Shown: positions 16,201 to 36,668, numbered from the stretch's first letter. The stretch is DNA of 64,000 nucleotides from an uncultured Clostridia bacterium (GCA_947625335.1 CANQNY010000001.1:3924-67923), one strand, 5' to 3'. Program-made: numbers and translations. Notes: generated from the letters alone by a model not told the origin.

Positions 16201-19200
16201 GCTGCTCGGTAACGTCCGACACGATGACCATGTAAATCCTGCTGTTGCTTTCGCCGAAAACCGAACGCGCGGTGGTAAGCTCTATCCACGCGCCTTTTCC
16301 GTCGCTGCGGATGGTGTGATAAGTCATATGAACCGACTCGGCGGCTTTCGCAGTAGTGATTATCCGTTCGAGATCCTCGTTGTCAACGCCGCCTCTTACA
16401 TAATCCAGAACATTCGGTCCTGCGGCGCGCTGTTTTCCGATAATCTGCCAGAAACTGCTGTTGCTGAACAGAATTTTGGGCTCGGCGTTTTCGGGGAGTT
16501 CCATTATGAGAATTCCCTCGCTGAAATTGTTCATAGCAGCCGCAATGCGATCGTTTGCCTGAGCTAACGCAAGCTCGGCTTTCTTTTCGGAATCGATATT
16601 CGTGCCGATACCGATAAGGCGCACTATCTTGCCGTTTTGGTTGAACGAACGGGTTTCGGTAAATCTCCACCAGCTGTACGCGTTAGTTCTCTTATTAAAC
16701 AAGCGGAACTCCTCGGAAATTTTCCCGCGGGTCAGATCGTCGTGGAATATTCTCACTTTTTCTACATCGTCGGGGTGAGTGATATTCTCAAAAATTTTCC
16801 CCTCTTTAACGTAATTTATAATGCCCTCGAAATCGAACCCGTAATCGGACAAATCTCCGACTTGGAAAACGCTGTCGTCGTCAAAATCAATATCAAGAAT
16901 TATGGAATCGGTGATTTTCAGGACCTGCTCTATGCGGCTGCGGGACTGCTCGATTATCCTGTCGCTTTCTATCTTATCCGTGATATTGTTAAACGCAATG
17001 CAGAAAATGGGGTTGTCGTTGCTGCCGCCGAGCCGTCTGTGAATACCGTCAAGGTGCAGCACCCTTCCGTTTTTGTCATAACGCCTTATCGACGCGCGAG
17101 TAGCCTTGTCGGTCCGCATAGCCTCAAGACACGCATTTTTGGAAACCTCCGCGTCCTCGGGCGGCATTTTGCTCCAGATGTTGGAATTCTCCTCGCTGAA
17201 ATCGTCCTGCGAGTAACCCATTATCTGTCTGTAGCCGTCGTTTGCACGGATAAGCTCAAGCTTTCCGTCCACCATTTCATAAATCCCTAAGCCGCCGAAA
17301 ACCGAGCTTATAAACTTCGACACAAGCGCGTTGCTGCCTAAAAGCTCGTTTACGTCCTCACCCATACCGTAGGTTTCGATAGGCTCGGCATAGGCGGTTA
17401 TCTCTTCCTGCGCGACAAGCTGAGTAAAATCATTTTCGGGAACGGGTCGTGAGAAATAAAAACCTTGTATATACGCGCAGCCTATGCTTGCAAGAAATTC
17501 GTACTGCTCGCGGGTTTCAACGCCCTCCGCCAGCAGCGGCACATTAAGCCACTTTGACATACGCGCAACGGAAGTCACAATAGTGCCCACCTTGCCGTTT
17601 TTCTCAAAGCCCTGCATAAACTTCATATCCAATTTCAGCACGTCAATTGGAATATCCTTAAGAGTGTTAAGCGACGAATAGCCGCTGCCGAAATCGTCCA
17701 TAAGCACAGGATAGCATTTCCTGCGAAGTCTGCCGATAGTGTCCAGCAGCTGCGACGGGTTGTCGTTATACGCGCTTTCGGTTATCTCTATGCGGAAATA
17801 TTTCGGGTCTACGCGATAGCGGTCGGTAAGCTCGCTTATCGTTTCAAACAAATTGGGATTGTAAAGGCTCATTCTCGAAACGTTCACCGAAATCGGGAAA
17901 GGCGGCAGACCCTCGTCAAAGCGTTTTTTCTGATAAATGCACACCTGTTCGAGAACGTACAAATCAAGCTCCGCGATAAAGCCGTTTTTCTCGAACACGG
18001 GAATGAATTTCGCGGGGAGAATTTGCCCCTTCGTCGGGTGATTCCAGCGCACGAGCGCCTCCGCGCTGACGAATTTCTTCGCGCGGATGCCGTAAATCGG
18101 CTGATAGCAAACGTAGAATTCCTTATTTTTAAGCGCGCGGCGGGCGTCGTCGCAGATTTCCTGCTCCTCAATCATCTGGCGGCGCATTTTATCATCGTAA
18201 TATGCGATATGCTCTCGGAAACTGCCCGAAATCGAACGGCAGGCAATCGACGCGCGGTCGGTCATATTGTCTACCGACAACTCTCGGTCGGTGACCTTAT
18301 ACACGCCTATGTAAAACTGCACCTCGTGGGAAATTTCGGGTGCGTCGGATACCGCCTTCTGCACCGCGTCAAGAATTGTCTGCGGGTGAATTGAACGCTC
18401 GGAATACGGAATAAGCATTGCAAAATGATCCGAGAAAAGCCGCGCGTAAACGCCGTTTTTCCCGATAACATCGCGCAGAACGCCAGCTATCGTAATTAAC
18501 AGCTTGTCGCCCACGTCGCGCCCTAAAACGTCGTTTAAGACCTTAAATCCGCCGATATTGAGCTTCATTATCGAATACTCCGCAAGCGGGTTTGCATTCA
18601 GAATATCCTGCGCGTTTTTCATAAATGCGGAGCGGTTGTACAGCCCCGTAAGCGGGTCAAAATATGCCGTTATGCGAAGCTCCTGCTCGATTTCGCGCTC
18701 TTTGGTGGTGTTGGTAATAAACGCGTAAAGGCACAGTCGTCCCTCGTCGTTGAACACAAGCTGCCCGCGCATAAGCAGCCAAAGCTCTCCCCCGTCCTTG
18801 GTCTTGCAGGAGAACGAATATTTAAGGTGCTTTCCGGTCGTAAGTGAGCGTGAAATTTTCTGCCGAATAATCTGAACGTCTTCATCGGAGATACCCGCGG
18901 AGGGGTTTTCGCCTATCTCGTTCATACAGCTTTCGTAATCGGGATAGCCGAGCAGCTCCGCAAGCCCCAGACTCGCAAAAAGGGTCTTCATTTTGCCGTA
19001 ATCATCGCGCTCGGCATAGGCAATTCCTCCCGGAGCGTTGTCAAGCAATGCCTCAAGATGACTTTCATTCGTGCGGAGGCGTTTTCCCACTTCGTTTGCA
19101 CGGAGTTCCTGACGCTTTTCCGCGTTAATGTCAAGAAATACGCAGTATATCTCGCGTTTTCCACCGCTTTCACCCATAACTCCCGCGATAAGCCTTACCC

Positions 19201-19897
19201 ACTGGCAAGCGTCGGGGAGAGAAGTGTCGCCTATCCCGAAAATTGCGGAAAAATGCGCCGAATCGCCCGACTCGCGGATAAGATTTTCAAGCCACGCGGG
19301 GCGGTCCTTCTCGGAAAACTGCCCGTTGAACTCGTCGGAGGTCATATTAAACAGCGTGAGCAGCTCATTGTTGAAAAACGTGCAGTAGGCGTTGCTGCCG
19401 TCGGTTTTGATTATTGCGATACCGCCGGGGATATTGTCCATAAGCGCGGACAGATGCCGCTCGCTTTCAAGCTGTTTTTTCATGCTGTCGCGCTCGGAGC
19501 GGATTTTGTCAAGCTCGCACAAACGCAAAACGCTCTTTATGCGGTGTTTTAACGTCCCCGTTTCCTCGCCGCGCGCAACGTAATCCACCGCGCCAAGCTC
19601 CAGAACGCGCATACGCGTTTCGGGGTCGTTGTCGGAAGTCACCGCGATTACCGGAAGTCCGCGCAATGCGGGGTCGGCGTTTATCCGCTCAAGCAGCTCG
19701 CAGCCGTCCATTTCGGGCATAATTATATCAAGCAACACCACGTCTACCGAGCATTCGCCGCCTCGCAGCAGCCGCAAAGCCTCGTCCCCGCTTTCGGCGG
19801 ACACGACGTTATAGCTGTCGCGGAGCATTTCCGTGAGAATTTCTATATTTTGCTTTATGTCATCAACTATAAGAACGGTTACGGTTTTGTTGTCCAT
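13235..19897 (-). CDS. giant c-di-GMP enzyme (about 2220 aa): REC-PAS(n)-degenerate GGDEF-EAL-PAS(n)-GGDEF-GAF
   Basis: REC (IVDD, LLDIIMP); ARLFSDHF degenerate GGDEF; AEALVRW and DDFGSGYSS EAL; RDTD-IVGRYGGDEF second GGDEF; C-terminal FVGFDECR..WTQEQ GAF. Confidence 0.92.
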   Translation of the reverse strand: MDNKTVTVLIVDDIKQNIEILTEMLRDSYNVVSAESGDEALRLLRGGECSVDVVLLDIIMPEMDGCELLERINADPALRGLPVIAVTSDNDPETRMRVLELGAVDYVARGEETGTLKHRIKSVLRLCELDKIRSERDSMKKQLESERHLSALMDNIPGGIAIIKTDGSNAYCTFFNNELLTLFNMTSDEFNGQFSEKDRPAWLENLIRESGDSAHFSAIFGIGDTSLPDACQWVRLIAGVMGESGGKREIYCVFLDINAEKRQELRANEVGKRLRTNESHLEALLDNAPGGIAYAERDDYGKMKTLFASLGLAELLGYPDYESCMNEIGENPSAGISDEDVQIIRQKISRSLTTGKHLKYSFSCKTKDGGELWLLMRGQLVFNDEGRLCLYAFITNTTKEREIEQELRITAYFDPLTGLYNRSAFMKNAQDILNANPLAEYSIMKLNIGGFKVLNDVLGRDVGDKLLITIAGVLRDVIGKNGVYARLFSDHFAMLIPYSERSIHPQTILDAVQKAVSDAPEISHEVQFYIGVYKVTDRELSVDNMTDRASIACRSISGSFREHIAYYDDKMRRQMIEEQEICDDARRALKNKEFYVCYQPIYGIRAKKFVSAEALVRWNHPTKGQILPAKFIPVFEKNGFIAELDLYVLEQVCIYQKKRFDEGLPPFPISVNVSRMSLYNPNLFETISELTDRYRVDPKYFRIEITESAYNDNPSQLLDTIGRLRRKCYPVLMDDFGSGYSSLNTLKDIPIDVLKLDMKFMQGFEKNGKVGTIVTSVARMSKWLNVPLLAEGVETREQYEFLASIGCAYIQGFYFSRPVPENDFTQLVAQEEITAYAEPIETYGMGEDVNELLGSNALVSKFISSVFGGLGIYEMVDGKLELIRANDGYRQIMGYSQDDFSEENSNIWSKMPPEDAEVSKNACLEAMRTDKATRASIRRYDKNGRVLHLDGIHRRLGGSNDNPIFCIAFNNITDKIESDRIIEQSRSRIEQVLKITDSIILDIDFDDDSVFQVGDLSDYGFDFEGIINYVKEGKIFENITHPDDVEKVRIFHDDLTRGKISEEFRLFNKRTNAYSWWRFTETRSFNQNGKIVRLIGIGTNIDSEKKAELALAQANDRIAAAMNNFSEGILIMELPENAEPKILFSNSSFWQIIGKQRAAGPNVLDYVRGGVDNEDLERIITTAKAAESVHMTYHTIRSDGKGAWIELTTARSVFGESNSRIYMVIVSDVTEQQENRMKLNAILGSFDGGVALVAESGGELRIDFANDNFYDVLCVRKEDEQRIKSMLKATVYAKNDTGDLHIRRGDGSTRIVRIHLEKSDSPMRGENRYVIVANDVTIARTAARNRVAERTANAEAGLYDLVYEVNTKNRTLRLIYSRYKHNNPELSKPLPIDCVLQEWAENYIHPADVESARAMYNMPINSPDFTDAYMNIRAANIHGDSDYHTFSVVLVRLRSDFCKLFIRDMARVDSSVASEKVAQTDRLYQTVAEQTNTTVIEFDHTQNRVICSPSINEFWASRLSENEFCNREEFRKGLAVYPEDREIFAEFIERVYSSDEPQSVTLRLKMADENYKWCRMTISLNRSGQKVLKSLCTINIVHSEVIARKKAEHTDELLRRTVRHIPVGVGIFRIDNGKPVPVYLSDNIYRMYGLKPGSIDAPVLPTEELVNNHRLYDRSEGEYALEAMRADGSRFWVNVQYRVLEEQGELMLYAVITDNSAKIEIDRRKTVEEQMYKVLLEETGTIIFDYKPDSDELTYLCRDDRGAIEYHTIEKLLQNPDSLTLLDGVDRANFIFVLKQLCETVGTRELPVKIEVGGYPRRFKAFMKSVCDDSGKIFEIIGKIEDVDDEAARLEKIQAKAMYDALCVDIYNKATTEELIKAELERSTGGALMMIDVDDFKSINDTLGHMFGDEFLKKFASTIKKAFRDTDIVGRYGGDEFFVFMPHATGALAEKKGSIILKNIAEIEVPQLGSIKSSIGVAAVNPDNRSYRQILRQADSALYEAKNRGKNCVVQFDPVTMSETSYRAESAVSQGRSGVVLSSNPNFAASLVMRMFSALYTSLDVTDGINQALALLGRAFDVSRVYIFEDSDDGEYCSNTFEWCGEGVESVMDTLQNLSYKDDLGGNYRENMDDDGIFYCHDINSLSDIHREILERQNVRSVLQCSISDNGKFKGFVGFDECRGSRFWTQEQIDSLVFLSKVIAIFLMKERLKNRSEQLLGSKE

Positions 19898-20107
19898 AAA
19901 AGCAGCCCTCCACAATACATAATAAACTATTTTAATTTTACCATATTGTAAGAAAAATGTCAAGTTTTATATTTGATTTTTGTGCAAAACATCCAAATAT
20001 TTTTGTAACTAAATTTTCTTAAAAATTTCAAAAAATATTGTATAATTAAACTGTAATATGCAGGGATTTTTAACGTCATTATAATTGAAGGGAAAAATAA
20101 AAGGGAA

Positions 20108-20677
20108 GTGATGGGATTGACCGACAGCGAGATTATTTCAATGCTTTGGGAAAGAAACGAAAAAGCACTCGCGGCGTTAAGCGAGAAATACGGGGGATAC
20201 TGCTCGGCTATCGCCGAAAACATTCTCGAAAACCGCGAGGACGCCGAGGAATGTGTGAACGACGCCTATCTCAAAGTTTGGGAGAAGATCCCGCCCGAAA
20301 AGCCGAAAATCCTTTCCGCGTTTATTGCGAAAATCGCGCGGAACGCCGCTATCGACCGATACCGCGCGGCTCACGCTCAAAAACGCGGGTGCGGCGACAT
20401 AGAGCTTATTTTCGACGAGCTTGACGGTGTAATTTCGAGCGTACATAACGCGGAGGATTCCGCCGCGCGCCGAGAGATGATAAACACGATAAACAGGTTT
20501 TTAAGGCGGCTGTCGGCGAAAAAACGACTTGCGTTCGTGTTAAGGTACTGCTGCTGCGAGAGCGTTCAATCTATATCACAGCGACTCGGAATGAGCGAAA
20601 ACAACGTTGCGGTTATGCTTTCGCGAACCAGAAACGCTTTACATGAGCAATTCAAAAAGGAGGGCTATAATTTATGA
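20108..20677 (+). CDS. ECF sigma-70 factor
   Basis: EDAEECVNDAYLKVW, IARNAAID, region 4 ISQRLGMSENNVAVMLSRTR. Confidence 0.92.
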   Translation: MMGLTDSEIISMLWERNEKALAALSEKYGGYCSAIAENILENREDAEECVNDAYLKVWEKIPPEKPKILSAFIAKIARNAAIDRYRAAHAQKRGCGDIELIFDELDGVISSVHNAEDSAARREMINTINRFLRRLSAKKRLAFVLRYCCCESVQSISQRLGMSENNVAVMLSRTRNALHEQFKKEGYNL

Positions 20678-22149
20678 AAAACACACTATTCGACTTACTT
20701 GGAGAAATTGACGACAAATTCTACGAAGAGGCTCTTTGGGAAAACGACCCCGGAGCTAAACTCCGCCCCGAAAAGAAAAAGGCCGTTATAAGAGTGCCGT
20801 TTATCGCGGCGGGAGCGGCTGCGGCGGCGGCTTTGTTTATCGTGCTGGCGTACAAGCTGCCGATTTCCGAAAAACCAAACGTCTCGGGAGCTGCGAATTC
20901 AAACAGCATATCCGAAAGCTTGAGCAGCTCGGACAATTCAAGCACGGGCGCGGAATATATCGGAATTCTCGCAAGCGATATTGAGGAATGCAAGGAAATC
21001 CTTGCCGAAAACGCTTCGGGCGCGGATATTGATATTATTGAAAGCCGAATTATGGATATAAACTTCGACGGCAAGGACGAGATTGTCGTTCTTGCAAACG
21101 GCGGCTACGGGGCGGCGGTTTTCTCCAAAAACAAGGACGGTATTTCGCAGACGGGGCGTTTCGCGCAGGGCGTGAGCATGGAAGGGCTTACGTCGCTTGA
21201 AATGCTGAACAAATTCGACAAAAACGGCGAGAAATACTGGTATTACTGCTATAATTATGATAACGGCATTTTTTACAACACATATATTCTCGCCGCGGTG
21301 AAGTTTGACGGGGAGGAATATTTTACCGAGAGCCTGCTTTCGTTCGGAACGCTGTATTACTCCGACCTTGAAGAACCCGTAAAGCAGAAATTCTACCGCA
21401 AGGGCTGGGACGATACCGACATCGGGATTGCCGGCGAACATAAGAGCGACATTCGGCGCGAGGAATTTAAGGCTTTGTGGGAGCAGTATGACGCTGCGCC
21501 CGATTTCGAGGAACTTGACCAATACGGCGGGGATGTTCTCGGAGAATACGACTTTGGCGACGGAATAACAGGCAAGCTTGTCGGCACGGGCAAAATCGCA
21601 GACAGCAGCCTGCTTTTGGGAGAAACGCAATATTCGGGCTGCAAGGCTGTTATCGACTTTAATGGAACGACCCTCGAAACGACCCTCATGGCGGTGTCCG
21701 TTTCGACAACCGCGCCGTCGCCTTTCGCCTTCAACGACTCCCCGAACTACAATTTGCGGCTTATAAAGCTTGCGGACGGCTATATTCTGGCGTTTACGTA
21801 TGAGGGAGAATCAACGCCCAAGGAAACGACGTTTTACGGGATAGTTGACATTGACGGAAAGCCTCAAATGTTCGATTCAAGGCTTTTCGGGCAGGTTTTA
21901 CACGAAGTCGACGCGCTCTCGCTGTTTGAAGGAAACACGTCTGAAATCGGGACCTCGTTCGGAGTGTTCCTGTCGGACAACTTAAGCATAAACGGGAATA
22001 CTTTTTCCGACAACGAAAACGGCGTTTTCTACACATTTGATTTCGACAACATCAGAATGGGAATTACCGCTCCCGAAAACTACAAATTCGGCTATGACTT
22101 TACAACAACCAAAGACGGAACAGCGTTTGAAGACGAAACACTCGGATAA
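20674..22149 (+). CDS. putative membrane anti-sigma factor with large extracytoplasmic domain
   Basis: ATGA-coupled to the ECF sigma; LGEIDDKFYEEA N-terminus typical of clostridial anti-sigmas; one TM helix and Ser-rich linker. Confidence 0.7.
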   Translation: MKNTLFDLLGEIDDKFYEEALWENDPGAKLRPEKKKAVIRVPFIAAGAAAAAALFIVLAYKLPISEKPNVSGAANSNSISESLSSSDNSSTGAEYIGILASDIEECKEILAENASGADIDIIESRIMDINFDGKDEIVVLANGGYGAAVFSKNKDGISQTGRFAQGVSMEGLTSLEMLNKFDKNGEKYWYYCYNYDNGIFYNTYILAAVKFDGEEYFTESLLSFGTLYYSDLEEPVKQKFYRKGWDDTDIGIAGEHKSDIRREEFKALWEQYDAAPDFEELDQYGGDVLGEYDFGDGITGKLVGTGKIADSSLLLGETQYSGCKAVIDFNGTTLETTLMAVSVSTTAPSPFAFNDSPNYNLRLIKLADGYILAFTYEGESTPKETTFYGIVDIDGKPQMFDSRLFGQVLHEVDALSLFEGNTSEIGTSFGVFLSDNLSINGNTFSDNENGVFYTFDFDNIRMGITAPENYKFGYDFTTTKDGTAFEDETLG

Positions 22150-27824: not shown

Positions 27825-27853
27825 TTTGTGCAGTTTTGTGCAGTTTGCGGAGT
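27825..27853 (+). promoter_or_regulatory. 10-bp direct repeats upstream of the portal operon
   Basis: TTTGTGCAGT TTTGTGCAGT TTGCGGAGT at 27825-27853. Confidence 0.45.
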
Positions 27854-27944
27854 GATAACATAAGCTCAAGGGAAAGGAAACCGACCCTTAATACACGGGC
27901 GGGGCGCACCCGAACGCCTTGCCCGAAGGAAAGGAGGAGTAATT

Positions 27945-29306
27945 TTGGAAATCGGAAATTTGCTTTTCGGAAGGGCAGGGCAGGACAAATTCACCGCGCT
28001 TTCGGCGTTCTATTCGGGCAATCTGGTTCGGTGGAACGACATATACAACGGCGGCGGCGACTGGCGGTACACCCGAAAAGGGGGACTTAGCGGCGGCATG
28101 CGAAAAGTGGCGTCGCTTGGGGCGGCAAAAGCGGTCTGCGCGGAGCTTTCAAGGCTGTGCTTTTCCGAGGGGACAAAGCCCGTGTGCGCGGACAAGGAAA
28201 CCGAGAGCTTTCTTGAACGAACGCTTAGCGAAAACGGCTTTTACGACAGATTCCCCGCGTTTCTCGAAAAGGTGTTTGCGCTGGGCGGCGGAGTTATAAA
28301 GGTCTATCTCGACCGGGGCGTAAAGCTCGATTTTATCACCGCCGACCGCTTTGTGCCTACCAAATGGGACAGCCGCGGCATAAGCGGCGGAGCGTTCGCC
28401 TCGAATGTTACCGTAAACGGGAAAAATTATCTGCTGGCGGAAACCGAGGAGCTTACCGACGAGGGACTGGTGACGACCAACAAACTCTACCGCGAAAGCG
28501 GAGGAGAACTGCCGCTTAACACGGCGTTCCCGAAAATGACCGAAAGGAGCGTGATAAAGGGACTGAAAAAGCCGCTGTTTGTGTATTTCGGGGCGGTCAC
28601 GGGGGCTCTCGCGCAATGCGAGCCTCTGGGAGCGTCGGTGTTCGCGGGTGCGGTGGATACGCTTAAAAGTCTCGACATAGTGTTCGACAGCCTTTCGAGA
28701 GAGTTTATTCTCGGAAAAAAGCGCATAATCGTGCCGAGTTACGCTATCCGCGGAGAATACGGCGCGGACGGCGAGGTAAAACGCTATTTCGACGCAAACG
28801 ACGAGGTTTTTGAGGCGTTTTCGGCGTCGGACGGCGATGATCTGAAAATCATCGACAACACCGACAAGCTGCGCGTGTCGGAACACACCGAGGCTCTGGA
28901 CAAGCTGCTGGACCTTTTGTGCATGCAGACGGGGCTGTCGGAGGGCGCGCTGTCGTTTAAGAGCGGAACTATCAGAACCGCTACGGAAGTCGTCAGCAAA
29001 AACAGCCGAACCTACCGTACCGCGGGCGTTTACCGGAAGATGATTGCAAACCGCTTTGCAAATGTGGCGGAGAACATCTGCCTGCTCGGGAAAATGTCGG
29101 GAGAGCTTTCGGCGGGCGCGTCAAGCAAGGCAACTTTGCGGTTTGCGGACGGCGTGTGCGAGGACGAGAGCGCGAAAACCGAACGCGCTTTGAAACTGTA
29201 CTCGGGAGGGCTTATCTCCAAAACGAGGGCTCTTTCGGAAATTTACGGAGTGTCTCTTGACGAGGCAAAGGCTATGGAAAAGGAGGACTTTACAAATGGA
29301 CAATGA
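27945..29306 (+). CDS. phage portal protein (SPP1 gp6/A118-like)
   Basis: KAVCAELSRLCFSE, FLEKVFALGGGVIKVY.D, DSLSREFILGKKRIIVP, TATEVVS, C-terminal F.D...GLISK..A..EIYG.S.DEA; TTG start after AGGAGG. Confidence 0.88.
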   Translation: MEIGNLLFGRAGQDKFTALSAFYSGNLVRWNDIYNGGGDWRYTRKGGLSGGMRKVASLGAAKAVCAELSRLCFSEGTKPVCADKETESFLERTLSENGFYDRFPAFLEKVFALGGGVIKVYLDRGVKLDFITADRFVPTKWDSRGISGGAFASNVTVNGKNYLLAETEELTDEGLVTTNKLYRESGGELPLNTAFPKMTERSVIKGLKKPLFVYFGAVTGALAQCEPLGASVFAGAVDTLKSLDIVFDSLSREFILGKKRIIVPSYAIRGEYGADGEVKRYFDANDEVFEAFSASDGDDLKIIDNTDKLRVSEHTEALDKLLDLLCMQTGLSEGALSFKSGTIRTATEVVSKNSRTYRTAGVYRKMIANRFANVAENICLLGKMSGELSAGASSKATLRFADGVCEDESAKTERALKLYSGGLISKTRALSEIYGVSLDEAKAMEKEDFTNGQ

Positions 29307-29649
29307 AGAAACCGTTCAGGAAGAAATTATTGACAGCGTGGAAGACGCGGCTGTCGACGAAAAGGCGTATCAAGCCGAGATAGAGGCTCTCAAAAAGGAA
29401 CTTGCGGCGGCGCAGATACGCACCGAGCTGCTTTTGGCGGGAGTTTTGCGCGAAAAACTGGACGAGGGCGCGGCTATAGCCGAGGGGCTTTACGCGGCGG
29501 GAAAAACTCCCATAGAGGCGGCGATTGAAACCGCCGAAAATTATCCGCATCTTAAGGCGGTAAAGCAGGAAATCCCGCAATTCGCGGCAGGCGGCTCGGG
29601 CGCGCTTGACGGGTTTGCGGCGATAAGGAGAATTTTCGCGGGGAGATAA
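29296..29649 (+). CDS. putative capsid scaffolding protein
   Basis: Acidic N-terminus, coiled coil, ENYPHLK motif and short C-terminal helix; lies between portal and capsid; overlaps portal stop. Confidence 0.65.
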   Translation: MDNEETVQEEIIDSVEDAAVDEKAYQAEIEALKKELAAAQIRTELLLAGVLREKLDEGAAIAEGLYAAGKTPIEAAIETAENYPHLKAVKQEIPQFAAGGSGALDGFAAIRRIFAGR

Positions 29650-29951
29650 AATTTTTACGTGGGGAAAACAACTCTCTGAAAAGGTTGCTGCGCGGGAATT
29701 TGCGGTCAAGAGCGGTTCACGCGGGCGCGGAAAGAAGTTGCACGCGGTAAAAATCGCGGGGCGACAGGCTGACAGCGGGGAAAGTTATCGGAAAGGCAAC
29801 AAATAATTTACGGGCAGGGCGGGGCGGGAAACAACATAGCGGAAAGATACTTCTGCGGCGCAAACGGCAGGCTGTTAGCCTTAAAAAACGGCGCGGCGGC
29901 AGAAGAATAACTCCGCACCGAATTTTATTTTAAGAAAGGAAGTTTTTTATT

Positions 29952-30839
29952 ATGGCAAACACAATCGAATATGCAAAGGTATTTCAGAAGGAACTCGACA
30001 AGCAGGTGACGGAATGCTCCACATCGGGCTGGATGGAGGACAACGCCTCGCAGGTTATCTACAACGGCGGCGGGGAAATTAAACTCCCGAAAATGGTTCT
30101 CAAAGGGCTTGCGGACTATGACCGCGATACGGGCTACACGGGCGGCGCGGTTACTTACTCCTACGAAACTATGACGCTTACGCAGGACAGGGGCAGACGT
30201 TTTCGCATTGACGCGCTGGACGTTGACGAAAGCAATTTCGGACTGGCGGCGGCAAATGTCGCGGCTGAATTTCAGCGCACAAAGGTTATCCCCGAAATTG
30301 ACGCGTACAGATACTCCACCCTTGCGGCGGCAGCGGAAATCAAAACCGAATATACTCCCGAAAAGGCAACCATTCTTTCCACGCTGATTGAGGAAATCGG
30401 CAAGGTACGCGAGGCGGCGGGCGACGAATGCGAGCTGGTCGTTGCTATGGCGCGTTCGGTTTACGACAAGCTGATGCTTTCGGAGGAGGTTACTCACTCC
30501 ATTGACTGCTCGAACTTCGTTCAGGGCGATCTTGAGCTTTCCGTCAAGAGCATTGCAGGCGCGGCAATTATCCCCGTACCGTCGGCTAGAATGAAGACCG
30601 GATACGATTTCAGCGCGACAGATGGTTTCTCCGCAAAATCCGACGCAAAGCAGATAAACTGGATAATCTGCCCAAAGAGCGCGCCTATCGCGGTATCTAA
30701 GACCGACAACGTGAAGATAATCACTCCCGAACAAAACCAGTTTGCGGACGCATGGGACATCGACTACCGCAAGTATCATGACCTGTTTATCCCCGACAAC
30801 AAAAAAGCGGTCATTGCGGTCTGCACCGAGACGCTCTAA
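29952..30839 (+). CDS. major capsid protein (HK97 fold, Firmicutes phage type)
   Basis: MANTIEYAKVFQKELDK, GG.EIKLPKM..GLADYDR..GY..G.VT..YET.TLTQDRGR.F.ID..DVDE, EFQRTKVIPEIDAYRYS, YRKYHDLFI. Confidence 0.88.
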   Translation: MANTIEYAKVFQKELDKQVTECSTSGWMEDNASQVIYNGGGEIKLPKMVLKGLADYDRDTGYTGGAVTYSYETMTLTQDRGRRFRIDALDVDESNFGLAAANVAAEFQRTKVIPEIDAYRYSTLAAAAEIKTEYTPEKATILSTLIEEIGKVREAAGDECELVVAMARSVYDKLMLSEEVTHSIDCSNFVQGDLELSVKSIAGAAIIPVPSARMKTGYDFSATDGFSAKSDAKQINWIICPKSAPIAVSKTDNVKIITPEQNQFADAWDIDYRKYHDLFIPDNKKAVIAVCTETL

Positions 30840-30855
30840 CTGCTTAGATTAACGC

Positions 30856-30890
30856 TATCGGGCGGTACCGACAATACCGCCCGATATTTT
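30856..30890 (+). terminator. intra-operon terminator after the capsid gene
   Basis: 12-bp stem TATCGGGCGGTA / TACCGCCCGATA followed by TTTT. Confidence 0.75.
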
Positions 30891-30908
30891 AAAAAGGAGG
30901 TTTTCTCT

Positions 30909-31358
30909 ATGATTATTACAAAGGAAGAATTTCACGAAATGGGGTTTGAAGTTGAGGCAAAATACGAGAGTCTGCTTGAAAAATGCATTCTGCGCGCGGA
31001 ATACGTTTTAAACGGGCTGACAAACGGCGCGGCAAGCACAGCGGCTCTTTCGGGGACGGCTGCCGCGGATTTTGTAAAGCAGGCGGCGGCTTTTCAGACG
31101 AACGATATTTTAAAAGAGGAAATTGCTCTTGCAAAATCACAAGCGGAATCCTCGTCGAGCGAAACCTCGAAAAAAAGCGACGAGCGCGTTTCTATAGGGG
31201 ATTTCTCCTATTCTTCCGGAACATCGTCCTCGGAGTCGTCTAAAAGTTCTTCTAGTTCGAGCGAGGAGGAAATATCGCGCCTTGACACGGGAAGGACGAT
31301 TATAAGGCTTTTGCGCGCGGCGGGCTGTCTTTATACGGGCGCGGAGGTGAAAGAATGA
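30909..31358 (+). CDS. putative head-tail adaptor (gp15/gp8-like)
   Basis: Follows the capsid gene; helical N-terminus, ERVSIGDFSYS beta-hairpin, C-terminal LRAAGCLYTG. Confidence 0.7.
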   Translation: MIITKEEFHEMGFEVEAKYESLLEKCILRAEYVLNGLTNGAASTAALSGTAAADFVKQAAAFQTNDILKEEIALAKSQAESSSSETSKKSDERVSIGDFSYSSGTSSSESSKSSSSSSEEEISRLDTGRTIIRLLRAAGCLYTGAEVKE

Positions 31359-31693
31359 TAAACGTAAAACCCATTCCCGACGAGCTTTTGGGGGACGATA
31401 TTGTACTTATCACGCCGACGGGTTACGGCTCTTCAAGGGAAACGATTTACAACGTCCGCGTGGAAAAGCAAGCCGCGATAACCGACTATACCTCGTCCTC
31501 ACAGCGCGAAAACACAACTATTACCGTATGGTACGACTGTGAGAATTCTTACCCTGAGGCGGAGTTTCCCGTCGGGGCTAAGGTTGAATACGGCGGGGAG
31601 ATTTTTGAGATCGTGGAATCAAAGGTTTACAAAACCGACGTTCCTCATCACAAAAAATTCAAGGCAAGAAAAATTGCGGAGGTGAGAGAATGA
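31355..31693 (+). CDS. putative head-closure / minor capsid protein
   Basis: IP..LL.D.I, TIYNVRVE, TVWYD, GAKVEYGGE.FEI beta-rich pattern; ATGA-coupled. Confidence 0.65.
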   Translation: MINVKPIPDELLGDDIVLITPTGYGSSRETIYNVRVEKQAAITDYTSSSQRENTTITVWYDCENSYPEAEFPVGAKVEYGGEIFEIVESKVYKTDVPHHKKFKARKIAEVRE

Positions 31694-31851
31694 ACAAGAA
31701 AGAAACGCCCGAAAAGCTGAAAAATCTCGGCGCGCTTTCGTCGGACGACATATGCAGGATTTCAAAAGAACTTGCAAACGAGGTTCGGAAAGTCAACCGA
31801 AGAATTTGCTCGAAAATAAAAAAGAAGTCTGAACGGAGGGATAAATCATGA
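31690..31851 (+). CDS. 53-aa basic helical ORF at the position of the missing tail module
   Basis: MNKKETPEKLKNLGALSSDDICRISKELANEVRKVNRRICSKIKKKSERRDKS; GGAGGTG RBS; ATGA overlaps with both neighbours. Not in the supplied ORF track. Confidence 0.7.
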   Translation: MNKKETPEKLKNLGALSSDDICRISKELANEVRKVNRRICSKIKKKSERRDKS

Positions 31852-32189
31852 CTATTACGATTGACGAATCGGAATACGACGTCACGGAACTTAACGCCAA
31901 AAGGGAAATTCGTCAGACCAACATTCAATACAACACGCAGGGCGATATGCTTATCGATATGGTAAACAGAAAATACCTGCTGGAAGTGACGTTCGGGCTG
32001 CTTAGCGAGGAAAAAATGGCGGCGCTGCGAAAGTCCTCCGATAAAATCTTCGTTCCCGTGACGTTCAACTCCCCAGAGGGAGAAATTACCGAGGACTTTT
32101 TTATTTCGGACGAGCCTGCGCCGATTGTTACCGTGATAAACGGAGAAAGATTATACGGCGGCGTAAAGCTTACTTTGAAACAGAGGTGA
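31848..32189 (+). CDS. putative distal tail (Dit-like) protein
   Basis: 113 aa; NTQGDMLIDMVNRKYLLEVTFGLLS...VTF.SP.G; position directly before the hub gene. Confidence 0.6.
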   Translation: MTITIDESEYDVTELNAKREIRQTNIQYNTQGDMLIDMVNRKYLLEVTFGLLSEEKMAALRKSSDKIFVPVTFNSPEGEITEDFFISDEPAPIVTVINGERLYGGVKLTLKQR

Positions 32190-32193
32190 TATT

Positions 32194-33711
32194 ATGGTCG
32201 AAGTGTCCGACAATTTCAAAAAACTCGCGGTACAAAGCGGGCGTTATGTTTACTGTAAAATTATCGCGGGAAACACAACGTTTTTTGACGACAAAATTCT
32301 CGAATTCGATTTCGACGATATTTGCCACCCGGAATGGTATACGGTAGGCACGGCTTGCCCGAACAAGTTTACTTTTTCGGTGCTCTACAACGGGGAACTT
32401 TTGGTGGGCGACACGGTAAAGCCGTATATCAGTTTCGACAACTCGGAATGGTGTCCGCTGGGGGTTTTCTATGTAGCAAGAAGATATGTCCGCGGGAAAA
32501 AAGCGTCTATTACCTGCTATGACAAAATGTACTCTCTGGACGATGAATACATACCCTCGATACAAGCTCCCACAACGTATGACGCAATTCTGAGGGACGT
32601 GTGCTCTGCGGCGGGGCTTGCCTGCGAGGACTATGGGGCGGATTACATCGTAAACGAAATCCCCAAAGGACACACGCTGAGGGATATGATAGGTTATATT
32701 GCGGCGATAAACCACAGTTGTGCGAAACTTGACCGCAGCGAAAAACTGACGCTGAAAAAACAAACGAGTATTATTTATTACTGGCTGGAACTCGAAAACT
32801 GCATGGACTACAGCAGAAATATGGATTACTCGACGATAACCTGCCTGTCGTGCGACACGGGAAACGAAATTCTGGTATCGGGGGACGGAGCGCTGACCTC
32901 CACCATCGAGTTCTACAACCCGTTTATGACGCAGCAGGGACTGGACAATATGCTGGCGTCGCTGAGGCTTATTCAGTTCTATGGTGCGAAAATCACTATG
33001 CAGGGACTGCCGTTTCTGGAGGCGGGCGAACGCATATTTTTTATGGACGACCCCGCCTATTTGCACCCGATTTGGTTAAGCGAGATAAACTACCACTACG
33101 ACGGCGCGCTTACCGCGAAAGTTTATTCCCGAAACCGGAGTTATACCGACGCTGCCGTTCACAAAGAGGACCTGGACGCCGCGCTTGACGAAATTCGGGC
33201 GCAGCTTGGCAACGTCTGCATAAAGCAGACAAACGACAACGAGATTTCTCTCGGAAGTTCGCCCGTGACGGCGGCAAGCTTTGAATTCCTCGCGAAAGCC
33301 AGAAACACCTTCGCGCAGATAGACCTTAATTTTACCGTCAGCTCCGCGCCGGGTGTGACGCTTAACATCGACCTTTCCGTAAACGGAGAAAAAATTTCCC
33401 GAACGGCTTTGCATATCGCGGCAGAACAAAGCGAAATGCTGCACTATTACTACCTTGCGGACAACCTTCCGAAAGGCGCGAATAAAATCGAGGTTCGGAT
33501 AAGTATGTCGCAGGGAACGGCGATTATCCCCAAAAATCAGCTTATCGCAACGCTTGTCGGAAAGGGTTTGGGCGGAGGGAACAGCGGCAATGTAAACGAT
33601 AGGCTTACCGTTACCGATGAATTTCCGAAATATGACTATGTGCGAACGGATCTGGGGCTCGCGGGATTTGACGCTTACCCCGGCTTTGACGGCGCACAGG
33701 AAACGGAGTGA
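32194..33711 (+). CDS. putative baseplate hub / Tal-like tail protein
   Basis: VGTAC..K, W.PLG.FYV, ITCYDKM..LD, TLRDMIGYIA, QGLPFLEAGE; beta-sandwich-like C-terminus. Confidence 0.65.
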   Translation: MVEVSDNFKKLAVQSGRYVYCKIIAGNTTFFDDKILEFDFDDICHPEWYTVGTACPNKFTFSVLYNGELLVGDTVKPYISFDNSEWCPLGVFYVARRYVRGKKASITCYDKMYSLDDEYIPSIQAPTTYDAILRDVCSAAGLACEDYGADYIVNEIPKGHTLRDMIGYIAAINHSCAKLDRSEKLTLKKQTSIIYYWLELENCMDYSRNMDYSTITCLSCDTGNEILVSGDGALTSTIEFYNPFMTQQGLDNMLASLRLIQFYGAKITMQGLPFLEAGERIFFMDDPAYLHPIWLSEINYHYDGALTAKVYSRNRSYTDAAVHKEDLDAALDEIRAQLGNVCIKQTNDNEISLGSSPVTAASFEFLAKARNTFAQIDLNFTVSSAPGVTLNIDLSVNGEKISRTALHIAAEQSEMLHYYYLADNLPKGANKIEVRISMSQGTAIIPKNQLIATLVGKGLGGGNSGNVNDRLTVTDEFPKYDYVRTDLGLAGFDAYPGFDGAQETE

Positions 33712-33715
33712 CAAA

Positions 33716-35035
33716 ATGAAAGGAAAAGCAACGTTTATCCTGACGGATAAGTATACCAAAAAGCCCGTAAAACAAATTACGGAACACAACCTTGTGACAA
33801 AGGCGTTGGAAAAGGTATTATTCCCCCCGCCTATCACAAGAATAACAATGGGAACTTCAAACTTCGCGGACAACTACTTCCCTATCTGCAATAAACTTAT
33901 AGGCGGGATAGTCCTTTTGGGGAACACGCTACCCGAAAACGCGGAGGATTTTATGATCCCGCCCGACATCATACCCGTAGGCGCGGCAGGAAAAGAATAC
34001 ACCGGCACAAACCCCTGCCGAGGGACATTAAATATCTCCATGAGCGGTCCTATCGAAAACGGCTACATGCTGGTGTGGGACTTCGCTCCCGAAAAAGCAA
34101 ACGGCGTGATAAAATGCGTGGGACTTACCAACTTCTGCTATGGAAACGCCGCTTTTTTAAAGACAAACGAGCAAAACTGCGGCATATGTACCCCGCCAAT
34201 AAATATGGGACAGAATTTGGCGTCTATCCCGACGGTTATGTCCGTTTTGGGACGTTTTTACGGCAAGGCGGAAGGCACGCGGCTGTATTCCTACACATAT
34301 ACCTCAAATATACTCACGCTTTACGAAAGCGAAATAAGCGACCCGCGCAACATTAAAGTCGGCGACGCCATAAGCGACTTCAAGACGGCAAAAGTAGTTT
34401 CCGAAAAGGAGCTTGAACTTCCCGTGCAGCTTTCGTCCTCGTCTATGCACTTCTACTGCCGCGAGGACGGCTGTCTTTATCTGCTGGCGTATAACTATAC
34501 GTTCAATAAAGTGACCATCTATCATTTTACGCTCATGAAGATCGATCCCATGACGGGAAGGCTGCTTGATGAAAAGAATTTTGAGATTTCCGGCGAAAAA
34601 AGCTTTTCGGGATTTTCGTTCGCGATAAAACAGGGGAAAATCTATCTTTCGGGTTCGGGGAACTACGCAACGCTGTTTACTATCAATTTATCAAACTGCT
34701 CGATACTCGCCGAAAGAAGTCTTACCCACGCGGGAACATTTAATTTGTTCGAGTGGAACGGCTATATCATGGGAACGGAAATGCTTTCGGGGTATTATTA
34801 CAAGTTTTTCGCGGAATATGAAAATTACCCCATGCTGTGCGGAGGACCCGGAGCAGAAGTGACATGCGATCTTGTCCCGATACCGTATTCCTTAAGATAC
34901 AGCTATGACTCCACGAGAACGAATTTTTATCTCATGATGAGAACGGACTATCTTGCGACAATAAACAACCTTTCCGCGCCGCTTGAAAAGACCGACCGAC
35001 ACGCGCTGCAGATACGCTACGAGCTGACCTACTAA
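33716..35035 (+). CDS. putative tail fibre / receptor-binding baseplate protein
   Basis: N-terminal EHNLVT..., RG.LN...SG..ENGY..VWDF...ANG.I..V.LT seen in Firmicutes phage tail proteins; aromatic-rich, propeller-like middle. Confidence 0.6.
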   Translation: MKGKATFILTDKYTKKPVKQITEHNLVTKALEKVLFPPPITRITMGTSNFADNYFPICNKLIGGIVLLGNTLPENAEDFMIPPDIIPVGAAGKEYTGTNPCRGTLNISMSGPIENGYMLVWDFAPEKANGVIKCVGLTNFCYGNAAFLKTNEQNCGICTPPINMGQNLASIPTVMSVLGRFYGKAEGTRLYSYTYTSNILTLYESEISDPRNIKVGDAISDFKTAKVVSEKELELPVQLSSSSMHFYCREDGCLYLLAYNYTFNKVTIYHFTLMKIDPMTGRLLDEKNFEISGEKSFSGFSFAIKQGKIYLSGSGNYATLFTINLSNCSILAERSLTHAGTFNLFEWNGYIMGTEMLSGYYYKFFAEYENYPMLCGGPGAEVTCDLVPIPYSLRYSYDSTRTNFYLMMRTDYLATINNLSAPLEKTDRHALQIRYELTY

Positions 35036-35164: not shown

Positions 35165-35324
35165 TAAAGCACCTCCGCTTTTAAATACAGCCCCGCAAGC
35201 CGAAAAAATGCGCTTGCGGGGCTTTGCTGTAATATTTTTGTCATACAAGGGTGTTTTATTCGCCGAATACCGTTGACAAATCCTGCCTGCGGTTGTATAA
35301 TAAGAATAGTGATTATTGTAAGAG

Positions 35325-36668
35325 GTGCGTATAATGTTTGTATTTCTTCGCATTGTAAACTGGGTTGTTCTGATTTTCGGACTGAATATGCCGATAATAT
35401 TAAAAAACGCTCCGCTGCCGCTTAAACTCGCGCTTGGGGCGGTGCTGCTGGCATATTTTCTGATATTCAACATACTGCCGACATTTAAAAAATACCCCGT
35501 TTTACGGCTGAAAGTGCTGGGGGACGGCGCGGAACTTATCCTTACGTTTTGGGTGACTTGCGCGTGTGCCGCGCAGTTTGTCGGGATAGGCATTTATGAC
35601 CTCGTTATGGGAGAGAAAAACTACACGGTCTACATCGTCTACGCCGTAATCCTCATTCTCGGAGAGGCGGCGATATTCTGGAACGGCATTATCCGCGTGT
35701 ATCTTACTTCCGTTCAGCTCGGAATTCAATATCGCGTGCTTGGGGTACTGTTCGGAATGGTGCCGATTGCAAATCTTATTATGCTGATGATAATTTACAT
35801 TACCGTAAAACGCGAGACCGATTTCGAGACCGAAAAATACAAGCTGAACGAAAGCCGCAAGGACGAAAAGATCTGCGCGACGAAATACCCGATTTTGCTG
35901 GTACACGGGGTGTTTTTCCGCGACAGCAGGCTTTTAAACTACTGGGGGAGAATTCCCGCGGAACTTGAAAAAAACGGCGCGGTGATATACTACGGCGAAC
36001 AGCAAAGCGCGCTTTCGGTAGTGGAAAGTTCAAAAGAGCTTGCGAAAAAAATAGAGGAAATAGTGACCACCACGGGCTGCGGGAAAGTGAATATAATCGC
36101 GCACTCGAAGGGCGGGCTGGATTCGCGCTATGCTATCTCGAAGCTTGGCTGCGACAAGTACGTCGCGACGCTTACGACGATAAACACGCCGCACAGGGGC
36201 TGTATTTTCGCGGAATATTTGCTGAAGACCGCGCCCGAGAATTTCAAAAAAATGATAGAGCAGACCTACAACAAGGCGTTTTATATGCTGGGGGATAGTT
36301 CTCCGAATTTTATGGAGGCGGTAAGCTGTCTTACAAACAGCTACTGCGAGGAATTTAACAAGGAAGTCCCGAATTCTCCCGACGTTATGTATCAATCCTA
36401 CGGGAGCAAGGCTTTAAACTCGCGCAGCGGAAAATTCCCGCTGAATGTGTCCTACCCCGTAGTCAAAAAATACGACGGCGACAACGACGGACTGGTGGCG
36501 CTGACCTCCGCGGAATGGGGCGAAAAATTTACGCCGATTTACCCCAAAGGCAAACGCGGCATAACGCACGCGGATATGATTGACCTCAACCGCGAGGATA
36601 TAAAGGGGTTTGACGTGCGGGAATTTTATGTACAAATGGCGGCGGATCTTAAAAAGAGAGGTTTTTAA
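35325..36668 (+). CDS. membrane-anchored lipase/esterase (alpha/beta hydrolase)
   Basis: N-terminal TM bundle; LVHGVFF, AHSKGG nucleophile elbow, DNDGLV, H..MID; TTGACA...TATAAT promoter upstream. Confidence 0.88.
   Translation: MRIMFVFLRIVNWVVLIFGLNMPIILKNAPLPLKLALGAVLLAYFLIFNILPTFKKYPVLRLKVLGDGAELILTFWVTCACAAQFVGIGIYDLVMGEKNYTVYIVYAVILILGEAAIFWNGIIRVYLTSVQLGIQYRVLGVLFGMVPIANLIMLMIIYITVKRETDFETEKYKLNESRKDEKICATKYPILLVHGVFFRDSRLLNYWGRIPAELEKNGAVIYYGEQQSALSVVESSKELAKKIEEIVTTTGCGKVNIIAHSKGGLDSRYAISKLGCDKYVATLTTINTPHRGCIFAEYLLKTAPENFKKMIEQTYNKAFYMLGDSSPNFMEAVSCLTNSYCEEFNKEVPNSPDVMYQSYGSKALNSRSGKFPLNVSYPVVKKYDGDNDGLVALTSAEWGEKFTPIYPKGKRGITHADMIDLNREDIKGFDVREFYVQMAADLKKRGF

Follow-up and report, generated by a model that had tools for sequence, protein, structure and literature searches.

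A candidate gene transfer agent of Oscillospiraceae-like gut Clostridia with a predicted stub tail, a shared promoter signature and an island target in its capsid gene

Introduction

Packaging of 4.6-8.9 kb of host DNA in the manner of gene transfer agents (GTAs) has been reported for Ruminococcaceae and Oscillospiraceae, with gene clusters identified in Faecalibacterium only (PMC12946183). The agent of Faecalibacterium prausnitzii, FpGTA (Borodovich et al, Nat Commun 2026), is encoded at two loci and forms 40-nm particles, tail-less or podovirus-like, that carry 8.4-8.9 kb of host DNA; its proteomics table (Supplementary Data 2) lists an N4-gp56-family capsid protein, a tail nozzle and a Prp-like protease, and its authors did not find it outside Faecalibacterium (PMC12946183). 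Other GTA-like packagers, whose genes were not identified, belong to the Ruminococcaceae, the Oscillospiraceae (Onthomonas) and the Christensenellaceae (PMC12946183), and a murine study saw GTA-like coverage for Pelethomonas (Oscillospiraceae) and no strong GTA cluster candidate (bioRxiv 10.64898/2026.07.08.737213). Here we describe an operon of phage-like genes in a 64,000-nucleotide stretch of DNA from an uncultured Clostridia bacterium (GCA_947625335.1 CANQNY010000001.1:3924-67923), which we refer to as the window and whose positions are counted from its first letter. We propose that the operon family to which it belongs is a strong candidate for a so-far-unnamed GTA of Oscillospiraceae-like gut bacteria. 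Like FpGTA, the family occurs in gut Clostridia, is apparently spread over more than one chromosomal locus and has no replication or integration genes. A literature search found no published description of it.

Results

A head and tail-tip operon among housekeeping genes

The operon consists of nine intact genes on the plus strand (27945-35035), set among housekeeping genes and ordered portal, scaffold, HK97-type capsid protein, adaptor, head closure, a 53-residue protein (g6), a tube-fold ring protein (g7), baseplate hub and a receptor-binding-like protein (g9; Table 1). A preliminary description of the stretch had listed nine co-oriented open reading frames (ORFs), and these stand with their coordinates, apart from two start sites. 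The scaffold most likely begins at ATG 29296 and not at TTG 29257, and the last gene at ATG 33716 (MKGKATF...) and not at 33617, since its PHROG match and all its homologues begin there. The tight and overlapping junctions claimed in that description extend across the operon: portal and scaffold overlap by 11 nt, there are 4-nt overlaps of the ATGA type at adaptor/closure, closure/g6 and g6/g7, and 4-nt gaps separate g7 from the hub and the hub from g9. Only two gaps are long, 302 nt between scaffold and capsid and 69 nt between capsid and adaptor. The GC content of the cluster resembles that of the remaining window, in line with the host-like composition noted before.

Table 1. Features of the operon and its leader, with positions in the window.
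Feature	Position	Strand	Length	Evidence or remark
Regulon signature TGCAGTTTTGTGCAG	27829..27843	+		two TGCAG boxes 10 bp apart, about 100 nt upstream of portal
Putative -10 region TGATAACAT and 5' leader	27850..27944	+		read from the sequence; predicted transcription start
Portal	27945..29306	+	453 aa	phrog_533 6e-100; Pfam SPP1_portal 3.5e-15; NCBIfam A118_put_portal 1e-68
Scaffold-like	29296..29649	+	117 aa from ATG	phrog_2303 head scaffolding, 1.6e-4, weak
GC-rich conserved element	29853..29902	+		inside the scaffold-capsid spacer
Major capsid protein, HK97-type	29952..30839	+	295 aa	phrog_422 8.5e-104
Empty target heptamer TAATCTG	30664..30670	+		inside the capsid gene; TCATCTG in relatives; island site in other genomes
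Head-tail adaptor	30909..31358	+	149 aa	phrog_541 1.1e-7; same family and position in viral contig L151
Head closure/stopper-like	31355..31693	+	112 aa	Pfam Minor_capsid_1 3.5e-7; phrog_793; same family in L151
g6, small basic helical protein	31690..31851	+	53 aa	sits where six tail genes were lost
g7, tube-fold ring protein, minimal Dit/tube-initiator	31848..32189	+	113 aa	phrog_1194 8e-11
Baseplate hub/Tal-like	32194..33711	+	505 aa	phrog_6616 8e-28
g9, receptor-binding-like distal protein	33716..35035	+	439 aa	phrog_19291 1e-29 on N-terminal 150 aa

Relatives of the operon, numbered here as loci (L003 and so on), are metagenome-assembled genomes (MAGs) or metagenome contigs throughout, with taxon labels as in their records and ORFs called mechanically. 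The portal measures 451-469 residues in 46 loci and the capsid protein 294-299 residues in 53, and a scaffold gene lies between the two in all loci. The capsid protein is 46% identical to capsid proteins of Streptococcus and Clostridioides phages and gave no match to the N4-gp56 capsid family of FpGTA (NCBIfam); neither its sequence nor the closure profile had a significant sequence match in the PDB. The adaptor of the window carries a serine-rich, low-complexity insert at about residues 85-125. Many relatives lack it (118-135 residues), though the adaptors in one group of closely related loci measure 145-151 residues. The spacer between scaffold and capsid (29650-29951) is free of ORFs and measures 164-504 nt in all loci, save one with 58 nt and the case of an inserted methyltransferase gene, with 1,703 nt. 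Modelling of its GC-rich element with RNAalifold gives a two-stem structure in which one compensatory pair is GC in some sequences and AU in others (8 versus 7) and the inner hairpin covaries, and the element could be one for RNA processing, stabilisation or attenuation ahead of the capsid gene.

The distal genes encode what appears to be a tail tip. The AlphaFold model of g7, built from the family alignment (pLDDT 85), has the tail-tube/Hcp/Dit fold, and its Foldseek matches are all tube, Hcp, Dit, baseplate tube-initiator or RcGTA neck proteins, at a modest level (TM about 0.55, E 3e-3 to 5e-2); its length is 113-120 residues across loci. The hub, mostly 488-508 residues, was modelled in the same way (pLDDT 80): residues 1-315 match the hubs Mu gp44, T4 gp27, VgrG, Listeria A118 gp18 and diffocin (Foldseek E 1e-17 to 1e-10), followed by a helix (320-338) and a beta-sandwich (340-457). 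A sequence search of the hub, g7 and g9 profiles against the PDB gave nothing significant, and neither the hub nor g9 showed a toxin, lysin or enzymatic domain. From its position we read g9 as a probable receptor-binding protein; both its termini are conserved and its middle is variable, and it is the fastest-evolving gene (25-41% identity) with a length still of 429-445 residues. g9 is missing or replaced in some clades: one has a shorter hub (448-465 residues) and no g9, another a hub of 342-348 residues followed by unrelated ORFs (altered distal ends are seen in L025, L028, L040, L041, L051, L067, L068, L070, L074, L078 and L080-L082). This modularity fits exchange of the receptor-binding part.

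Relationship to short-tailed siphophages

A search with the hub through 2.9 million IMG/VR contigs gave one distant match, at 29% identity, and the best viral portals are 50-52% identical compared with 57-76% within the family. There was no DNA similarity to GenBank phages. The nearest viral contigs, L151 (IMGVR_UViG_2820244222_000001) and L147 (3300006045_000798), are from short-tailed A118-type siphophages and share with the family, in order and by PHROG, TerL (the large terminase subunit), portal, capsid (65-67% identity), adaptor 541, the g7 homologue 1194 and hub 6616, while L151 also has TerS (the small subunit) and closure 793; their identities to the family fall below the within-family range. 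L151 runs TerS, TerL, portal, scaffold, capsid (67%), adaptor phrog_541, closure phrog_793, six extra genes, phrog_1194 and phrog_6616. The six are the minor head genes phrog_556 and phrog_913, a 143-residue major tail protein (phrog_820), a 108-residue gene, a chaperone-like phrog_706 and a tape-measure-like gene of 244 residues (244-300 in the viral contigs), and in the relatives g7 stands directly behind the tape-measure-like gene. In the window the same families flank the gap and only g6 stands in place of the six. The pruned architecture proposed in the preliminary description is thus real, with tube, chaperone and tape measure among the genes absent. The comparison shows that the operon derives from a short-tailed A118-type siphophage module, with loss of the tail completion proteins, tube, chaperones and tape measure.

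At the position of g6, most of 80 loci compared carry a conserved ORF of 34-56 residues with the motif ..SYRLAKLLR.GNRELERQLN.KK, of which the window copy is divergent, and 16 of the 80 have no ORF there. g6 has no detectable homologue in the viral relatives, and its identification as a vestigial tape measure was rejected as it shows no homology to their tape-measure-like genes.

A scan of the ORFs of the cluster and flanks, to which it was confined, gave no gene for an integrase, a tail tube, a tape measure or lysis, in keeping with the absences listed previously; for the terminase the absence comes from tblastn over the window. Neither the scanned part of the window nor about 130 loci gave an integrase, regulator, primase or replicase gene or an att duplication for the cluster, and none of these loci has a complete cognate prophage alongside it. 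A functional A118-like siphophage prophage would have its terminase, tail terminator, major tail protein, chaperones, tape measure, lysis and lysogeny modules side by side; these were not found here, whereas the nearest viral contig, L151, has them.

Conservation and inheritance

The hub has more than 220 homologues, counted as protein clusters. Among the best 120, which are 43-81% identical and nearly all about 450-515 residues long (three are about 650), those with a source name come from gut MAGs labelled Oscillospiraceae or Ruminococcaceae, and one is labelled Lachnospiraceae. A scan of species-representative genomes gave 80 loci with the same gene order throughout. The left flank in the window is an ispH/rpsA fusion, a plsC-like acyltransferase, cmk, an HI0933-type flavoprotein gene and rpiR, and the right flank a DUF676 lipase-like gene, phoH, ybeY and dgkA, which bears out the housekeeping neighbourhood first described on both sides; about 25 loci have the cluster at this same site, between the same genes. 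Far from being strain-specific, the cluster is therefore present in about 80 species-level genomes, some 25 of them with identical rpiR to phoH synteny.

Ratios of non-synonymous to synonymous divergence (dN/dS) were estimated pairwise by the Nei-Gojobori method and are rough at this depth, most pairs being near synonymous saturation. They are lowest for the capsid gene (0.136) and portal (0.17), followed by g7 (0.215), hub (0.22) and g9 (0.295), with scaffold (0.375), adaptor and closure at 0.37-0.38, and are comparable to those of eight flanking genes (0.08-0.22); all lie far below 1. Non-synonymous divergence of the cluster tracks that of its flanks (Mantel r 0.80-0.96, p = 0.001). The dN/dS values and this correlation together exclude a decaying or recently acquired prophage, and the cluster is vertically inherited under purifying selection.

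Two records stand apart. L022 (CAVIFG010000128.1), with the full cluster, was deposited as Escherichia coli, almost certainly a binning or labelling error. L085:3756-8522, labelled Ruminiclostridium (hub 29% identity), has a Phage_Gp15 chaperone, a 237-residue gene, g7, hub and g9 among metabolic genes and looks like a separate tail-tip-only remnant.

Terminase and lysis loci in relatives

A portal-centred scan of metagenomes found an outgroup version of the operon (L126 and L128; capsid 65% and portal 47% identical) that runs TerS, TerL (phrog_2 4e-44), portal, scaffold, capsid, adaptor, two small genes, g7, hub, g9 and holin, with no tube, no tape measure and host genes on both sides. Within the main family, L023 and L044 have TerS (85 residues) and TerL (408 residues) directly after g9, so that the terminase pair adjoins the cluster in four loci. 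A search with the family TerL returned thousands of proteins; the best 120 are 400-416 residues long and 73-99% identical, and where a source is named the NCBI annotation reads 'PBSX family terminase large subunit', from MAGs labelled Oscillospiraceae or Ruminococcaceae; viral TerLs are at most 63% identical. Between lineages the nucleotide identity of TerL is 55-78%. In most relatives TerS (83-85 residues) and TerL (408-411 residues) form a separate two-gene operon among housekeeping genes, and this is where the orphan terminase, for which the preliminary description proposed a search, was found, in the family and not in the window. Five look-ups of such solo pairs gave five different contexts: near gatCAB, near L21-L27-obg, after spoIIAA-spoIIAB-sigF, after radA, and between prkC and the ATP synthase operon. 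A link to sporulation, considered for the third of these, was rejected as the other four give it no backing.

In L074 a four-gene cassette on the minus strand (L074:18529-20117), 8.7 kb from the structural cluster, stands behind an exact copy of the signature described below. It encodes an 82-residue protein, a 97-residue protein with a transmembrane segment and coiled coil, a 70-residue holin-like protein and a 251-residue amidase with a SPOR domain, and is a candidate lysis locus of the system. No cassette of this type was found in the window or in the other fetched loci.

A promoter signature shared by dispersed operons

The signature, TGCAG-N5-TGCAG, has a single match in the window, ahead of the portal gene. 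The leader that follows has a short hairpin (27868-27889, AAGGG...CCCTT) and then a GGAGG Shine-Dalgarno sequence, and the order of motif, TG-n-TATTAT-like box, hairpin (with differing stem sequence) and strong Shine-Dalgarno sequence is also found in the portal and TerS leaders of other loci. In 4.2 Mb of fetched loci, both strands counted, the exact motif has 86 matches, compared with about 1 expected from base composition: 77 upstream of the portal gene, 5 ahead of the capsid gene in split operons (L004/L034, L031, L038, L075), 2 upstream of solo TerS, 1 before the L074 lysis cassette and 1 that lies 86 nt upstream of the xis gene of a mobile island in L072. Many of these loci are closely related, and the counts are not of independent events, but the motif is strikingly specific all the same. 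Further solo TerS loci have the motif with one mismatch (two loci) or two mismatches (two loci). The pattern points to one regulator for a dispersed regulon. An Rfam search gave tRNAs as its sole matches.

The split operons take two forms. In L004/L034 a reverse-oriented methyltransferase gene (L004/L034:6809-7594) lies between scaffold and capsid, with a second copy of the signature at 7685 before the capsid gene. In L031, L038 and L075 an operon from capsid to g9 starts with its own motif and there is no portal nearby.

Mobile islands in the capsid gene

Neither the signature nor the use of the capsid gene as an island hotspot had been foreseen in the preliminary description. Of the loci retrieved around the hub, 18 keep only the last 55-100 capsid codons. 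Among 30 informative metagenome contigs retrieved around the portal, several of them with a human-gut label, 21 pass into foreign DNA after the portal, the scaffold and the first 240 or so codons of the capsid gene. 'Headless' loci, with only the last 55 residues of the capsid protein, were at one point taken for a loss of head genes, which was rejected as the portal-centred loci hold the other half and the gene is split by an island. The occupied loci are L003, L005, L036-L045, L059-L076, L083 and L090-L132.

The junctions are exact and carry a 7-bp duplication, at the left ...ATTAATTGGATCATCTG / AACTATCACTATCCC... and at the right ...GGGATAGTCGGGTTC / TCATCTGCCC..., and the ends of the elements are imperfect inverted repeats of about 50 bp. 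L004 and L005 represent one species without and with insert, 99.99% identical from the junction on. The cargo varies between strains and is mostly of defence type: a GmrSD enzyme, Mrr with type I restriction-modification, a DndC-like PAPS reductase with DUF4007, and AAA_21/AbiEii-like ATPases. One type of island has xis, rep and a tyrosine integrase; the genes c157 and c158 beside an island integrase were considered as a second scaffold/capsid pair and rejected, being HTH_17 (xis-like) and HTH_36 proteins. The xis gene of L072 (L072:3144-3485) stands behind an exact motif at L072:3058-3072, the single verifiable case as L073 is cut at the locus edge, and hints that excision of the island may be co-induced with the particle genes. 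In interrupted copies all other genes are intact, with dN/dS of 0.15-0.22 among such loci.

Two readings of the islands can be offered. In the better supported of the two they are parasites on a conserved target, whose inactivation of the capsid gene spares the host lytic particle production and so gives 'cheater' genotypes. That the islands are excised when the regulon fires, which would restore the capsid gene, also fits, the motif evidence for it coming from one locus.

Neighbouring genes

The DUF676 lipase-like gene (35325-36668) is membrane-anchored and preceded by a perfect sigma-70 consensus promoter, TTGACA-17-TATAAT, at 35273-35301. It trails the cluster in many loci, including some whose other flanks differ (L054, L059, L112), which may reflect ancestral synteny or a functional link. 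Upstream of the cluster, on the minus strand, lies a very long ORF of 2,242 residues (13235-19963). At 20108-22149, a sigma gene of the extracytoplasmic function (ECF) type overlaps the start of a 491-residue gene without family match, probably its anti-sigma factor. From their sizes and overlap the two were considered as TerS and TerL, which was rejected in favour of a sigma/anti-sigma-like pair; they are not kept beside the cluster in other loci.

Discussion

The operon would seem to belong to a multi-locus, GTA-like viriform with a tube-less stub tail that is fixed in the chromosome, vertically inherited and common to gut Oscillospiraceae-like Clostridia, a reading to which we give a probability of roughly 0.6. 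The features used here for recognising GTAs and viriforms are reportedly those of Lang et al in 2012 and Kogay et al in 2022. Phage-like head and tail structural genes reside in a cellular genome; there are no genes for replication, integration, excision or immunity and no sign of mobility, the flanks being housekeeping genes and the hub family near-absent from IMG/VR; and inheritance is vertical under purifying selection. Dispersal over several loci is suggested by the solo TerS-TerL operons and one lysis cassette that carry the motif of the structural operon, as seen in separate assemblies. The element most probably produces particles that carry host DNA, as a gene transfer agent does.

A working scheme for the particle can be proposed from these genes. 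Portal, scaffold and capsid protein would form a procapsid, and TerS and TerL, present as genes in relatives and presumably also elsewhere in the genome from which the window derives, would fill it by headful packaging with host DNA, host DNA being the expected cargo because no cognate genome exists. The adaptor and closure proteins would seal the portal. A single g7 hexamer may serve as both terminator and Dit and carry the hub trimer and g9 straight on the head, an arrangement that would make the particle stub-tailed and podovirus-like. Release would need a lysis cassette. Since the structural and terminase operons, and at one locus the lysis operon, bear the same signature, a single host regulator may turn all of them on together.

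Several observations weigh against this scheme. Neither the family TerL nor TerS has a tblastn match anywhere in the 64-kb window, and lysis genes were not found there. The five TerL look-ups yielded no assembly with both a solo TerS-TerL pair and a terminase-less structural locus, so that the terminase is linked to the operon through four joined loci, parallel conservation and the common motif, which has two mismatches in its second box in 2 of 6 distinct solo TerS loci. The motif-bearing lysis cassette is a single case. The islands split the capsid gene in many genomes, and a large share of strains therefore has the system switched off, or on only under certain conditions. Among the solved structures tested there is no precedent for a tail tip placed on a head without tube, terminator and tape measure. 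No RNA runs were found for the window, which is from a rabbit gut metagenome, or for a human-gut relative, and particles, packaged DNA and transcripts have been seen for no member of the family.

The alternative that survives best is that the same domesticated multi-locus particle has another role, as a PBSX-like DNA-packaging killer or bacteriocin, a decoy or an anti-phage device, and we consider this unlikely but a real contender. Domestication, selection and the regulon are equally compatible with it, the NCBI name of the family TerL and the resemblance of the candidate lysis cassette to the xhlA-xhlB-xlyA layout both recall PBSX, and for FpGTA its authors likewise do not decide between these roles (PMC12946183). 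Its targeting end behaves as an arms-race module might, g9 and the C-terminus of the hub evolving fastest and being swapped between clades. PBSX, however, kills with a contractile tail and there is no sheath or tube here, nor does the hub or g9 carry a detectable toxin, lysin or enzymatic domain, while the strong conservation of TerS and TerL argues that DNA packaging itself matters.

Very unlikely, in our view, is a phage satellite or helper-dependent remnant, a capsid-forming island that relies on an infecting or resident phage for its tube, terminase or lysis. The gene content, with capsid genes but an incomplete tail, does resemble that of capsid-forming satellites, and the murine transductome preprint raises the suspicion that its GTA candidates include elements of this kind (bioRxiv 10.64898/2026.07.08.737213). 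Against this, the integrase, att sites, regulatory and replication modules and variable position of a satellite are found neither in the scanned part of the window nor in the related loci: the cluster keeps a fixed chromosomal position and diverges together with its flanks, the family owns a TerL and a tail tip, and IMG/VR holds no family-level member (hub at most 29%, portal at most 52% identity). An inert cryptic-prophage remnant that has yet to decay, which the many lacking phage functions and the interrupted capsid genes might suggest, is the least probable of all, given ORF lengths kept across about 80 species at saturated synonymous divergence with dN/dS of 0.14-0.38, tight start/stop junctions, a signature that is conserved and re-created before the capsid gene wherever the operon is split, island-interrupted copies whose other genes stay intact at dN/dS 0.15-0.22, and neither dN/dS near 1 nor frequent frameshifts.

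If the operon is part of a vertically inherited GTA-like viriform, as we prefer, a bolder version of the proposal can be framed, which is possible though doubtful. The family would then be the missing GTA of gut Oscillospiraceae, a family-wide multi-operon viriform with a stub tail derived from a siphophage tip and one regulator acting at TGCAG-N5-TGCAG, whose capsid gene docks defence islands; as the excision module of the islands (xis-rep-int in L072) bears the same signature, induction of the regulon would trigger their excision, make the capsid gene whole again and perhaps bring island DNA into the particles. The mobility of defence islands would then be tied to GTA production by one switch.

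In the guts of humans and mice, two recent studies name Oscillospiraceae and Ruminococcaceae as the main origin of host DNA packaged in a GTA-like manner, and this family with its 15-nt promoter signature offers a concrete, searchable GTA candidate. Where terminase, structural and lysis genes lie in separate small operons, a GTA search that asks for a single cluster with a terminase in it would pass the system over. Placing a Dit/Tal-type tip on a head with no tube, terminator or tape measure in between would be a new short-tail design, and the capsid gene as a precise insertion site for defence-gene islands, in most of the human-gut strains sampled, links the 'cheater' dynamics of GTAs with defence-island mobility and possibly with a regulatory switch.

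Among known systems, the capsid-forming phage-inducible chromosomal islands (cf-PICIs) also have their own portal, scaffold, capsid and connector proteins without a full tail, but they are mobile, with integrase, regulation and replication modules and att sites, and take their tails from a helper, whereas the element here is immobile and has its own tail tip. PBSX of Bacillus subtilis is, like the host of this family, from the Bacillota, a defective prophage that packages host DNA; its name is given by NCBI to the family TerL, and the L074 cassette has its layout of XhlA-like protein, holin and amidase. It differs in being contiguous and myovirus-type, with sheath, tube, tape measure and its own repressor and sigma factor, and is limited to close relatives of B. 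subtilis. With the RcGTA-type alphaproteobacterial GTAs (Rhodogtaviriformidae) the family shares a domesticated HK97-type head and tail module, vertical inheritance, purifying selection, lack of self-replication and, probably, a multi-locus arrangement under host regulation, and the g7 model matches the RcGTA neck/tube proteins 6toa_G and 6tba. The domestication here, in Bacillota, would be an independent one: RcGTA keeps tube, terminator, tape measure and terminase in its main cluster, and its regulators CtrA and GafA are unrelated to anything found here. FpGTA has its tail-tip and lysis genes apart from its head genes, and its TerS and TerL sit with portal and capsid, while here they form a separate operon in most genomes. 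Unlike FpGTA, the operon described here has a phrog_422 capsid, an A118-type portal and a siphophage Dit/Tal-type tip with a gp27-like hub, and no adjacent terminase. Homology between the two was rejected from family annotations, and FpGTA and this operon family appear to be analogous, independently domesticated systems.

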